Shown: positions 11,595-46,925 of the stretch, piece after piece
How positions within the stretch are numbered: the stretch's first letter is position 1
Layout of the letters: the number at the start of each line of letters is the position of its first letter
Assembly: GCA_029856125.1 (NCBI GenBank)
Contig: JAHQWJ010000014.1
Span: forward strand, 32,001-96,000
Direction: 5' to 3'
DNA from: Promethearchaeia archaeon
GTDB lineage: Archaea; Asgardarchaeota; Lokiarchaeia; Sigyniarchaeales; SOKP01
DNA length: 64,000 nucleotides
The notes under the pieces: model-generated
What the model was told of the DNA's origin: nothing
Databases searched by the model: none
Seen by the model: only the letters and a program-made list of their open reading frames with translations
Translations under genes and position numbers: made by a program

Positions 11595-12647
11595 TTAACA
11601 AATTCTCGGTATTGGTTCCCCTAAAGGCATATCTACAAACCGTGTTCCCCCTACTATGGTGTTTAAAAGTACCCTTTTAGGATTGTCTGACTTGACTACG
11701 CCGATTATCTCTGCGTCTTTTCCAATTGATGTTGATAGTATTTTAGATAAGATTTTTTCCGCTCGATTTGGATCTACAGACATAAGAGCTCTCCCCTCAG
11801 AAGCAATCGCATAAGGATCTAATCCCAGCATTTCACATATGGCATTAACTTGCTTTTTGATTGGAATCTTGTCTTCTTCTAAAGTAATACTTACATTTGA
11901 TTTATTTGCCCAATCGTTGAGTGCCCCTGCTATCCCACCTCTTGTTGGGTCTTTCATTGCGTGGATGTGATTATTTTCAATTTCTTCTTTAAGAACGTTG
12001 TAAATCTCAAGTAAATGCGCTACATCAGAATTCAAGTCAGTTGAAATATTTAAGCCTTCACGGCTTCCAATTAGTGCGCTCCCATGGTCACCAATACTCC
12101 CCGTAACAATAATGGTATCTCCCGGTTTTAAGTTAGCATCCAAAACTTTTATGTTTTTATCCTTGATTCCAATCCCCGTTGTTGCCATTATCATTTCGTT
12201 CAGGGTCCCCTTAGGCATTACCTTGGTGTCTCCAGCGATAATCGCAACGTTCGCCTCTTTAGCTTTGTTATTAAATGAATTAAGGATTTTGTTTAGTTGA
12301 TCGAACTTAAAACCCTCCTCTATAATAACTATCGACGTTAATGCTATAGGTTGAGCACCCATCATTATTAAATCGTTTACCGTGCCACAAACGCTTAATG
12401 TCCCTAAATTGCCCCCCGGAAAAAAAAGTGGATAAACAGTGTGTCCATCGGCAGTAATTACAATTTCTTTTTCATACTCATCTAAAGGAATTGTTGCTCC
12501 ATCGTCAAGTTCTTGAACTCCTATACCTTTGTTTACATTTTTAAAGGTAATATTTCTCGTAACATACGAGATTAGTTCTTCTTGTAATTTGCCACCAGCA
12601 CCATGAGCTAACGTAATTATATTTGAGCTCACTTTTTTCATACTCAT
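11595..12647 (-). CDS. hypE: Carbamoyl dehydratase HypE
   Basis: HGAGG, PLFFPGG, GTVND, GDTKV, MKDPTRGG, C-terminal PRIC. Confidence 0.97.
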   Translation of the reverse strand: MSMKKVSSNIITLAHGAGGKLQEELISYVTRNITFKNVNKGIGVQELDDGATIPLDEYEKEIVITADGHTVYPLFFPGGNLGTLSVCGTVNDLIMMGAQPIALTSIVIIEEGFKFDQLNKILNSFNNKAKEANVAIIAGDTKVMPKGTLNEMIMATTGIGIKDKNIKVLDANLKPGDTIIVTGSIGDHGSALIGSREGLNISTDLNSDVAHLLEIYNVLKEEIENNHIHAMKDPTRGGIAGALNDWANKSNVSITLEEDKIPIKKQVNAICEMLGLDPYAIASEGRALMSVDPNRAEKILSKILSTSIGKDAEIIGVVKSDNPKRVLLNTIVGGTRFVDMPLGEPIPRIC

Positions 12648-34749: not shown

Positions 34750-36054
34750 ATGGTAAAAGAAATAACAGTAGAACCAGTCACTCGATTAGAGGGACATGGT
34801 GGATTAAGAATTGTCATTGGAGATGACGGTAAGGTAAAAGATGCTCAGTTTAACATAACTTCGACACGATTTTTCGAGAAATTTCTTGAAGGACGTTATT
34901 GCGAACACATACCTAGAATCACGCCTAGAATTTGCGGAATTTGTCCAATCCCACATCATTTAACTCCCACAAAAGCTGTAGAAGACGCTTGGGGCGTTTC
35001 TATTCCAGAACCAGCTCGAAAATTGCGAATTTTGTTACAGAACGCGAAACAATATTCTAGTCATACGTTACATTTCTACGCACTCGCAGCACCTGATTTC
35101 TTATTAGGTCCGTTTGCGGATCCTGCGTTAAGGAATGTCGTTCATGTAATTAACAAAATGCCAGATGTTGGAGCAATGGCTTTGAAAATGATGGATTTCG
35201 GTCAAAAACTCTGTGCGGAGATTGGAGGAAAATCTGTTCATCCTGTTTCTGCGATAGTTGGAGGCATGAAAAAGCCAATGAGCGAAGCTGCTCGGGATAA
35301 GTTTTTGAAAATGATTCCTGAACAAGTCGAATTTGCAAAGAAGACTGTTGAGATCGGATTAAAAGTCGTCACCGATTATTGGGATGTCGTTGCTAATGTA
35401 GGTGTTGTTCCTACTTATTACTTAGGCATGACCAATAAAGGTGTCCATGATATTTACGAAGGAGATATTCGAATTGTTACACCTGATGGAAAGAAGATTG
35501 ATTACGATGTTCATAACTACTTAGACGCACTTGGTGAACATATTCCAGAGCATTCTTATGCGACACACATGTATTACAAGCCTGCAGGATATCCTGAGGG
35601 TATTTATCGTTCTAACACGTTAGCAATGATAAATTGTGCCGATAAAATGGCAACTCCTTTGGCAGATGGCGCACTTAAAGACATGAGAGATAAACTTGGA
35701 CCAATTTCCCATCACACCTTTGCTTATCACTGGGCTCGATTAATTGAATTAGTTGAGTCGATTGAGATGGTTGCGACACTATTACAGGATCCTGACATTG
35801 TAAATCCTGATTGTAAAACATTAGATGTCCAACCAAGAGAAGGAGAGGGTATAGGTATGACCGAAGCCCCGCGGGGCAATTTATTGTACCACATTTGGTC
35901 TGATGCTGATGGTATATGTAAGAAAGCAAATCTCTTAGTAGCGACAAATCATAACATTGCTGGAATTGAGAAAACACTTATGCACGTAGCAAAGCAGGTG
36001 TTTGAAGATAAGGCGTTAGAAGGATTAAAATTACCAGACCCTTGGATTGATTAA
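34750..36054 (+). CDS. mvhA: [NiFe(Se)] hydrogenase large subunit lacking the C-terminal L2 motif (VhuA-type)
   Basis: TRLEGHG, RFFEKFLEGR, RICGIC, EAPRG; ends DPWID with no DPCxxC. Confidence 0.92.
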   Translation: MVKEITVEPVTRLEGHGGLRIVIGDDGKVKDAQFNITSTRFFEKFLEGRYCEHIPRITPRICGICPIPHHLTPTKAVEDAWGVSIPEPARKLRILLQNAKQYSSHTLHFYALAAPDFLLGPFADPALRNVVHVINKMPDVGAMALKMMDFGQKLCAEIGGKSVHPVSAIVGGMKKPMSEAARDKFLKMIPEQVEFAKKTVEIGLKVVTDYWDVVANVGVVPTYYLGMTNKGVHDIYEGDIRIVTPDGKKIDYDVHNYLDALGEHIPEHSYATHMYYKPAGYPEGIYRSNTLAMINCADKMATPLADGALKDMRDKLGPISHHTFAYHWARLIELVESIEMVATLLQDPDIVNPDCKTLDVQPREGEGIGMTEAPRGNLLYHIWSDADGICKKANLLVATNHNIAGIEKTLMHVAKQVFEDKALEGLKLPDPWID

Positions 36055-36080: not shown

Positions 36081-36233
36081 ATGAGCGAAGAAATACCGGA
36101 AGGAGTAGTAAACCTTTTAGAAATGATTGTGCGTTGCTTCGATTGTTGACTATCGTGCGCAGCCCACATAACCGTTGTTAAAGAAAACGGTGAAGAGGTT
36201 TACTCTCGCAAGTTGAACGTTGGCTTAGGATGA
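36081..36233 (+). CDS. vhuU: VhuU-like selenopeptide subunit (50 aa, Sec at TGA 36147-36149)
   Basis: MSEEIPEGVVNLLEMIVRCFDC-U-LSCAAHITVVKENGEEVYSRKLNVGLG*; supplies the L2 motif missing from the upstream subunit. Confidence 0.9.
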
Positions 36234-36290
36234 ATATCCAATAAAAACAATAGATTGGATATAACGCCCCCTGCCCGGGGTAAAAGCCAA
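36220..36290 (+). promoter_or_regulatory. Candidate SECIS / structured RNA at the 3' end of vhuU
   Basis: ATATCCAAT (36234-42)/ATTGGATAT (36254-62) stem with an A-rich loop; CCCC/GGGG hairpin; TTGGCTT/AAGCCAA closing helix. Confidence 0.55.
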
Positions 36291-36329: not shown

Positions 36330-36845
36330 GTGAAAAAAATGACAGTAGATTTTGAATTTCGAAAACAAGTTATGGATTATCATATCGGGTCTGATTTAAT
36401 TAAGTATTGTTATCAATGTAGTCGTTGTGCAGATAACTGTCCAATTACTAACGTAACGACAGACTTCTATACGACTACAGGATACAATCCAAGAAGCAAC
36501 ATTCTTAATGCTTTGTTAGGATATAAGGAAGCAATATTTTCATCTGATGCCTTGACCATTTGGGGTTGTACCGTTTGTGATACATGTGATGAGGTTTGTC
36601 CTCAGAATATCGAATTAACTGAGATTTTTACACTATTAAAAAATCAAAGTGTAGCAAACGGAGATGCGCCTGATTTTATCTACTCGCAAGCAAAAGCAAT
36701 TTTTGATAGTGCGAAAGCGATCCCATCTCAACCTGCTATAGAGCGTAGACGAGAACAATTGGGTCTACCCCCTGTTGCAATGCCGGACATTAGTGAACTC
36801 CAAACTTTATTAAAAAATATTGGAGTAGAAAAAAAGCTAAAATAA
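36330..36845 (+). CDS. hdrC: Heterodisulfide reductase subunit C
   Basis: CYQCSRCADNCP and WGCTVCDTCDEVCPQ; directly upstream of hdrB. Confidence 0.9.
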   Translation: MKKMTVDFEFRKQVMDYHIGSDLIKYCYQCSRCADNCPITNVTTDFYTTTGYNPRSNILNALLGYKEAIFSSDALTIWGCTVCDTCDEVCPQNIELTEIFTLLKNQSVANGDAPDFIYSQAKAIFDSAKAIPSQPAIERRREQLGLPPVAMPDISELQTLLKNIGVEKKLK

Positions 36846-36850
36846 GAGGA

Positions 36851-37735
36851 ATGATGAGAAAAATGACAGACTATAAAATGTTTGAAGGTTGTACTATCGG
36901 AAACCGTATTCCTTTCATTGAAGCGGCATCCAGAAAAGTTTTTGATAAAGTTGGAATTGAGACTTCACAAACGAACTTTACTTGTTGTCCAGATCCCACC
37001 GGCATGAAATCGTTTGATAACGACGCTTGGCTAGCCATTGGTGCGAGAAATCTATGTTTAGCGGAAGCTGAAGGAAAAGACATAATTTCTCTATGTAATG
37101 GTTGTACTAATACGCTTCGAGGAGTCCAACATCAATTAAAACACGATTCATGGAAAATGGATAAGGTCAATAAAGAGCTCGCTAAGATCGGAAAAGAATA
37201 CAAAGGCACAATAGATATTAAGCATTTCGTTGATGTGCTGAGCGATAAATTAGACAAAGTCAAAGAAGCAATAACTAAACCACTTGACGGTCTAAAAGTC
37301 GCAGTCCATCCTGGGTGTCACTATATGCGACCTGCAGAATGGATGGAATCCGACGATCCTATGAGGCCAACTACGCTAAAGAAACTCGTAGAAGCAAGTG
37401 GAGCGACAGTTGTTGATTACGGGGAGGAAATATTGTGCTGCGGAAGTGCTGTGACTAACGCTTACGAAGAACACGGGTTTGCAAACTTAAAGATTAAGAT
37501 GGACGCTATCAAAAAATCGGGCGCAGATGTGATTGCTGTAAATTGTCCAGCGTGTTATCAACAGTTCGATACGAGACAACGAGATTTAGGTAAGGCATAC
37601 GAGACCGAATACGCAACTCCCGTGTTATATATCACAGAGCTTTACGCATTAGCAATGGGCTTCACTCCAGACGACATCGGCTTAAAATTTCACAGAGTTC
37701 GATTGAAATCCACGTTAGAAAAACTTGGTTTATAA
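36851..37735 (+). CDS. hdrB: Heterodisulfide reductase subunit B
   Basis: GC..TCCP..CNGC and HPGCH..CCG..CPAC..QFD (two CCG domains). Confidence 0.93.
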   Translation: MMRKMTDYKMFEGCTIGNRIPFIEAASRKVFDKVGIETSQTNFTCCPDPTGMKSFDNDAWLAIGARNLCLAEAEGKDIISLCNGCTNTLRGVQHQLKHDSWKMDKVNKELAKIGKEYKGTIDIKHFVDVLSDKLDKVKEAITKPLDGLKVAVHPGCHYMRPAEWMESDDPMRPTTLKKLVEASGATVVDYGEEILCCGSAVTNAYEEHGFANLKIKMDAIKKSGADVIAVNCPACYQQFDTRQRDLGKAYETEYATPVLYITELYALAMGFTPDDIGLKFHRVRLKSTLEKLGL

Positions 37736-46858: not shown

Positions 46859-46925
46859 CTGGTTTTAAAACTCAGGGGCAAATTTTACTAATTAGATTAA
46901 AAGAAAAAAAGATAATTTATTGCAT

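Follow-up and report, generated by a model that had tools for sequence, protein, structure and literature searches.

The window, by which we mean the whole stretch of 64,000 nucleotides that was analyzed, contains a tight hydrogenase operon on its plus strand with the gene order vhuG-vhuA-vhuU-hdrC-hdrB (Table 1). The small subunit encoded by vhuG is unusually long. It exceeds a typical MvhG by about 130 amino acids, and additional Cys-rich modules follow its Oxidored_q6 domain.

Table 1. Features of the vhu operon (positions are counted from the first nucleotide of the window)
Feature	Position	Strand	Basis
vhuG/mvhG, hydrogenase small subunit, 441 aa	33413..34738	+	Pfam Oxidored_q6 (PF01058), 78.9 bits, residues 16-170
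vhuA, large subunit, 434 aa	34750..36054	+	Pfam NiFeSe_Hases, 94.8 bits
vhuU, predicted 50-codon selenoprotein gene	36081..36233	+	homology to MvhA C-terminus and solved VhuU; conserved in 77/80 related loci
Predicted Sec codon UGA, vhuU codon 23	36147..36149	+	aligns with first Cys of MvhA DPCxxC and with X (Sec) of 9sfi_M
lokiSECIS	36230..36264	+	predicted hairpin; shows all lokiSECIS features given in PMC4989117
hdrC-like 4Fe-4S dicluster protein, next operon gene	36330..36845	+	Pfam Fer4_8 and related families
hdrB-like protein, two CCG domains	36851..37735	+	Pfam CCG (PF02754), 100.2 bits, 2 stretches

The large subunit VhuA contains the N-terminal Ni motif (L1), RICGICPIPHH. Its C-terminus reads ...LKLPDPWID, followed by TAA, and lacks the C-terminal Ni-binding motif DPCxxCxxH. 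The translation of 34750-36054 thus bears out what the original prediction had claimed, that MvhA/VhuA ends at DPWID without the L2 motif. We also considered whether the Glu after Cys51 (GRYCEH) of VhuA is the residue that forms a hydrogen bond with the Sec/Cys ligand in [NiFe] hydrogenases. This assignment was dropped; we take the known Glu to be located in the N-terminal RxEGH motif.

A second open reading frame (ORF) begins with an ATG at 36081, 26 nt downstream of the vhuA stop. The frame reads MSEEIPEGVVNLLEMIVRCFDC, then TGA (36147-36149), LSCAAH, 21 further residues and a stop TGA at 36231-36233. It had been described beforehand as RCFDC-TGA-LSCAAH plus a tail of 21 amino acids, with the second TGA as the real stop. 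This description is exact: all its sequence statements hold, and the frame does end at the second TGA. With the first TGA read as Sec, vhuU supplies U-x-x-C-x-x-H (Sec23, Cys26, His29) and the tail.

The vhuU peptide matches the part that VhuA lacks. With Cys in place of Sec, it aligns to residues 425-456 of the MvhA chain 5odc_F (E 6e-5), and it also matches the C-termini of the solved MvhA chains 7t2r_D and 9sw2_F. The match to the VhuU chain 9sfi_M covers all 27 amino acids of that chain (E 9e-4 to 4e-3). This chain reads ...LRAYDP-X-YSCAAH, and X falls in the column of the vhuU TGA. Hence U23-L-S-C26-A-A-H29 corresponds column for column to C-L-S-C-A-T-H and X-Y-S-C-A-A-H. Judged from its sequence, the ORF at 36081-36233 far exceeds what chance would produce. 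The best solved relative of VhuA is likewise a split chain, 9sfi_g (418 aa, 412 bits), which aligns end to end with it (residues 4-418 to 3-417). Therefore the large subunit is divided at the loop where the solved methanococcal-type enzyme is split as well. The alignments to 9sfi_M and 5odc_F support the earlier view of a large subunit divided into VhuA and VhuU, with Sec at the position of the first Cys of L2.

We compared the locus with 80 loci that encode a large subunit at 83-97% identity. According to their record titles, these are mostly Promethearchaeota/Promethearchaeia metagenome-assembled genomes (MAGs), with some Odin-, Hod-, Hermod- and Thorarchaeota; nineteen records bear no title beyond 'uncultured archaeon', and the labels of two are non-Asgard. 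In 77 of the 80 loci, the gene for the large subunit is followed by a vhuU ORF that has TGA in frame at the identical codon, and the remaining three loci end before the ORF. The Sec codon is TGA in every one of the 77 loci with the ORF, and a Cys codon (TGY) is found in none. These orthologous ORFs come from different species-level genomes that were assembled independently.

In principle, the TGA could be an ordinary Cys codon that was misread in sequencing or assembly, and the original prediction had named a sequencing error as something that would overturn it. Nothing beyond the general error rate of MAGs speaks for this explanation. The same TGA is kept in 77 independent assemblies. Furthermore, the exact nucleotide pattern for D-C-U-L-S-C-A-A-H, with TGA as the codon for U, occurs in 138 of 400 genomes of the Asgard phylum (29 of 85 genera) and in 107 of 134 genomes of the window's own family, and the reversed control yields 0 matches. 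We consider a sequencing error refuted, with a probability that is practically nil.

Alternatively, the UGA at 36147 may be a true stop. The large subunit would then be without its former C-terminal Ni ligands, and the frame after the UGA would be the decaying remnant of an mvhA that was once fused. A decaying frame, however, should not be under purifying selection. Summed over sites, nucleotide diversity downstream of the UGA is 3.21, 0.87 and 11.23 for codon positions 1, 2 and 3, respectively, and the vhuU tail ...EIYSRKLNVGLG is conserved across the 77 loci. Most of the variation thus falls on third codon positions, and this pattern, together with the conserved tail, is what a translated frame would show. 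In addition, a covarying SECIS follows the frame (see below), and we found no second gene copy in the genome that could supply the L2 motif. Against these observations stand two points in favor of a true stop: under translation table 11 the ORF ends after 22 codons, and EFsec was not found in the assembly. On balance, a true stop is extremely improbable.

One of the related loci (L033) has a premature stop within the vhuU tail.

The end of vhuU overlaps a predicted SECIS hairpin. Published lokiSECIS elements consist of AUGA 5' of a 9-bp stem, an 11-nt loop and GA after the stem, or AA in the case of VhuU (PMC4989117). In Lokiarchaeota VhuU.1, the stop codon is contained in the AUGA of the SECIS (Mariotti et al. 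2016, PMC4989117). Here, AUGA occupies 36230-36233 and its UGA doubles as the vhuU stop. The stem is a perfect 9-bp helix (36234-36242 paired with 36254-36262) and is followed by AA at 36263-36264. The apical loop has 11 nt (36243-36253), AAAAACAAUAG (AAAAA...AG); its first five bases are A-rich, and its last base is G, preceded by A.

The stem is maintained among the related loci. Across 66 distinct sequences, 95.5% of cells are paired, compared to 20-46% in slid controls. Six of the nine pairs show compensatory changes on both sides, and the covariation score was reached by 0 of 500 shuffles. An Rfam scan of the window at the gathering threshold gave no matches, so no lokiSECIS model fires here.

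Two further observations concern the surroundings of the hairpin. In three loci (L051, L054 and L089) vhuU ends one codon early at UAG, and the AUGA is moved 3' by a small insertion. Directly after the SECIS, at 36265-36281 (+), two elements are conserved across the 66 aligned loci: the box (A/G)ACUGCCC and a short hairpin of G+C, CCCCC...GGGG. This region may act as a lower SECIS helix, as a terminator or as a site of processing between vhuU and hdrC.

Decoding UGA as Sec requires dedicated machinery, and the original prediction suggested looking for tRNA-Sec, SelB, SelD, PSTK and SepSecS in the genome (3.69 Mb on 153 contigs, 32.7% G+C). All of these are present except for SelB/EFsec, which was not found in the assembly. 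A genome devoid of Sec machinery, which the original prediction had named as a refutation, is therefore not what we observe. SepSecS is identified by a profile match of 351.7 bits. A PSTK-like gene matches over its full length (1-248 of 249) with 168.6 bits, which is below the TIGR cut-off, and is the sole match. SelD is encoded by two genes (190 and 169 bits), and both contain a single in-frame TGA (Sec).

The tRNA-Sec gene lies at C101:1260-1406(-), directly upstream of SepSecS on a contig of 3.6 kb. It was located by blastn, using the intron-less tRNA-Sec of a congener as probe. The probe itself scores 57.7 bits against RF01852 and lies about 4 kb from the EFsec gene of that congener. The gene in our genome contains two introns, one of 27 nt after the anticodon loop and one of 30 nt in the T-loop. 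A T-loop intron in a Loki tRNA-Sec has been published (PMC4989117). The spliced 90-mer has a 9/4 cloverleaf as its minimum free energy fold (-50.2 kcal/mol), the anticodon UCA, a long variable arm and the discriminator G. It is identical to the tRNA-Sec of the congener at 76 of 89 positions; the differences are mostly in stems, where several are matched by a change on the opposite strand.

Because of the two introns, standard searches miss this gene. On the whole genome, RF01852 produced only four matches of about 30 bits, below the cut-off, and ARAGORN, run with and without introns, reported 17 tRNAs and no tRNA-Sec. A descriptor search for the D-arm and the anticodon-arm returned nothing credible, because an intron sits right after the anticodon loop. 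A 96-nt 'tRNA-?' reported by ARAGORN on contig C2 was rejected as tRNA-Sec; it is an intron-containing ordinary tRNA.

EFsec, the SelB homologue, was not found in the 153-contig assembly with TIGR00475, PF00009 or PF21208. The SelB model matches only aEF1A, aIF2-gamma and a degenerate EF-Tu-like protein in this genome, and a tblastn search of the assembly with the EFsec of a congener returned paralogues only. The degenerate protein (374 aa, C32:34478-35599 (+), corresponding to L016:1291-2412) is the third-best match to the SelB model (72.6 bits). It has domain 2, but its G domain is degenerate and without a P-loop, and it was rejected as EFsec. EFsec is present in five of eight sampled congeners (231-245 bits), and tRNA-Sec lies on a contig of only 3.6 kb. 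Therefore we read the absence of EFsec as a likely assembly gap, caused by the fragmentation of the MAG.

In another alternative, the UGA is read through as an amino acid other than Sec, for example, as Cys or Trp, either because a near-cognate tRNA decodes it or because UGA is reassigned in general. Two points speak for this: EFsec was not found here, and Cys would be a chemically suitable Ni ligand in place of Sec, as in MvhA. However, the presence of tRNA-Sec, SepSecS, PSTK and SelD as well as the EFsec genes of the congeners argue against this explanation. UGY never occurs in the 77 orthologues, which is unexpected if Cys is the product. UGA also ends vhuU, inside a dedicated SECIS, and hence is not a general sense codon. 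We consider readthrough without Sec very unlikely, yet less so than a true stop.

At least six recognizable selenoprotein genes besides vhuU carry the same SECIS. A genome-wide scan with the SECIS descriptor yields 17 sites. Among them are sites 3' of HdrA (C129), of four VhuD-like genes with two Sec each (C112, C124, C142 and C82) and of a Prx-like gene (C112), all with in-frame UGA.

Two ORFs that are followed by a SECIS have uncommon arrangements of UGA. The Prx-like ORF on C112 (168 aa) ends about 26 nt before the SECIS at 46880 (-) and contains the redox motif W-U-H-Y-U. Both positions of its CxxC-type motif would be UGA/Sec. On C122, an ORF of 95 amino acids ends about 26 nt before a perfect lokiSECIS at 12086 (-) and contains two adjacent in-frame UGAs (...HAD-U-U-ADN...). 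It is a possible candidate selenoprotein.

To explain these observations, we propose that the ORF at 36081-36233 is vhuU and that it encodes, as a separate piece, the large-subunit C-terminus of a Lokiarchaeial (Promethearchaeota) group-3c (Mvh/Vhu-type) [NiFeSe] hydrogenase. We hold this explanation with high confidence; selenium insertion, nickel ligation and cleavage of the tail are the steps that we infer. The UGA at 36147 would be decoded as selenocysteine by Sec-tRNA(Sec). Decoding would be directed by the eukaryote-like lokiSECIS hairpin, which starts 83 nt downstream and whose AUGA would also provide the real stop. Together with Cys62 and Cys65 of VhuA, Sec23 and Cys26 of VhuU would then coordinate the Ni-Fe site, as its ligands three and four. 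Once the metal is inserted, a HycI-type endopeptidase probably cuts off the 21 residues that follow His29, and the mature VhuU of about 29 residues would stay bound to VhuA. Such processing of the tail had already been suggested, and a gene for a HycI-family endopeptidase in the genome (C56:18192-18497, 46.9 bits) is consistent with it.

The motif around the Sec codon differs from that of the solved enzymes. In vhuU, R-C-F-D-C-U creates C-x-x-C-U-x-x-C, whereas all solved relatives have R-A-Y-D-P-(C/U). In place of the canonical Asp-Pro before the Sec/Cys ligand, vhuU has Asp-Cys. This variant is common among related genomes. R-C-[FY]-D-C-U is found in 76 of the 77 related loci (the exception, L068, has D-F-U), and the canonical D-P-U-x-S-C-A-x-H occurs in only one of 151 Asgard genomes of high completeness. 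On the evidence of these counts, D-C-U is a lineage-wide variant and gives no reason to exclude the gene from VhuU. RCFDCU had been called unusual here. It does differ from all solved relatives, but it is standard across Asgard VhuU and not specific to the window.

The only D-P-U-L-S-C-A-A-H among the 151 Asgard genomes lies at G143:C11:166582-166608 (-), in a genus without a D-C-U match. This genome would be useful to polarize the change between Pro and Cys.

The additional thiols of Asgard VhuU might form a reversible selenenylsulfide or disulfide, which could shield the Ni-Fe site from oxidation or act in maturation, or they might provide a fifth ligand. We consider these ideas rather improbable. 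If a redox bond or a fifth ligand did exist, the Asgard enzyme would have a chemically distinct [NiFeSe] site. A vicinal Cys-Sec pair also exists in the GCUG motif of thioredoxin reductase. The lineage-wide adjacency of Cys and Sec poses a cheap and testable biochemical question but does not amount to a novel type of system.

In annotation, vhuU is either shortened or missed by standard gene callers. When it is missing, the Asgard Mvh/Vhu-Hdr hydrogenase looks catalytically dead, and so conclusions on the H2 metabolism of these eukaryote relatives can go wrong. The gene is also one more clean case of a eukaryote-like SECIS in a polycistronic archaeal operon.

Most of what we describe agrees with existing literature. 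Lokiarchaeota VhuU, its SECIS and the UGA stop within AUGA have already been published (PMC4989117; PMC11227280). The FrhA/MvhA/VhuU selenoprotein family is found in 68.3% of Sec-using Asgard archaea (PMC11227280). The statement that Lokiarchaeia encode VhuU selenoproteins is in line with both of these papers. The main texts of PMC4989117, PMC11227280 and PMC11291895, which the comparison covered, do not mention the Cys-Sec adjacency. The original prediction, made from sequence alone, correctly rediscovers a selenoprotein and a recoding signal that were already published. It is of value to annotation and ordinary for the field, and the only residual novelty is the lineage-wide CxxCUxxC motif.

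The closest known system is Lokiarchaeota VhuU.1, which is also a single-Sec peptide of about 50 amino acids after vhuA. Nothing of substance differs, and the gene described here is another orthologue. The SECIS is the same as well: AUGA that serves as stop, a 9-bp stem, an 11-nt A-rich loop that ends in AG, and AA instead of GA.

The loop at which the large subunit is divided is shared with the solved Vhu enzyme of Methanococcales (PDB 9sfi/9t1s; chain M of 27 aa and chain g of 418 aa). The two VhuU peptides align over residues 5-30, with Sec at the position of the first Cys of L2, followed by SCAAH. In contrast to the methanococcal R-A-Y-D-P-U-Y-S-C, however, the vhuU described here encodes R-C-F-D-C-U-L-S-C, which has Cys at two additional positions. 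Its SECIS is Loki- or eukaryote-like, unlike the methanogen GAA_A SECIS, and the VhuA described here has about 15 extra C-terminal residues.

The unsplit MvhA of Methanothermobacter and Methanothermococcus (5odc_F, 9sw2_F) likewise belongs to a group-3c enzyme that is partnered with Hdr. It shares the C-terminal helix ...EM[IV][IV]R-x-[YF]-D-x-C-L-S-C-A-x-H with the protein described here. Unlike the latter, it is a single polypeptide, with Cys instead of Sec and Pro before that Cys.
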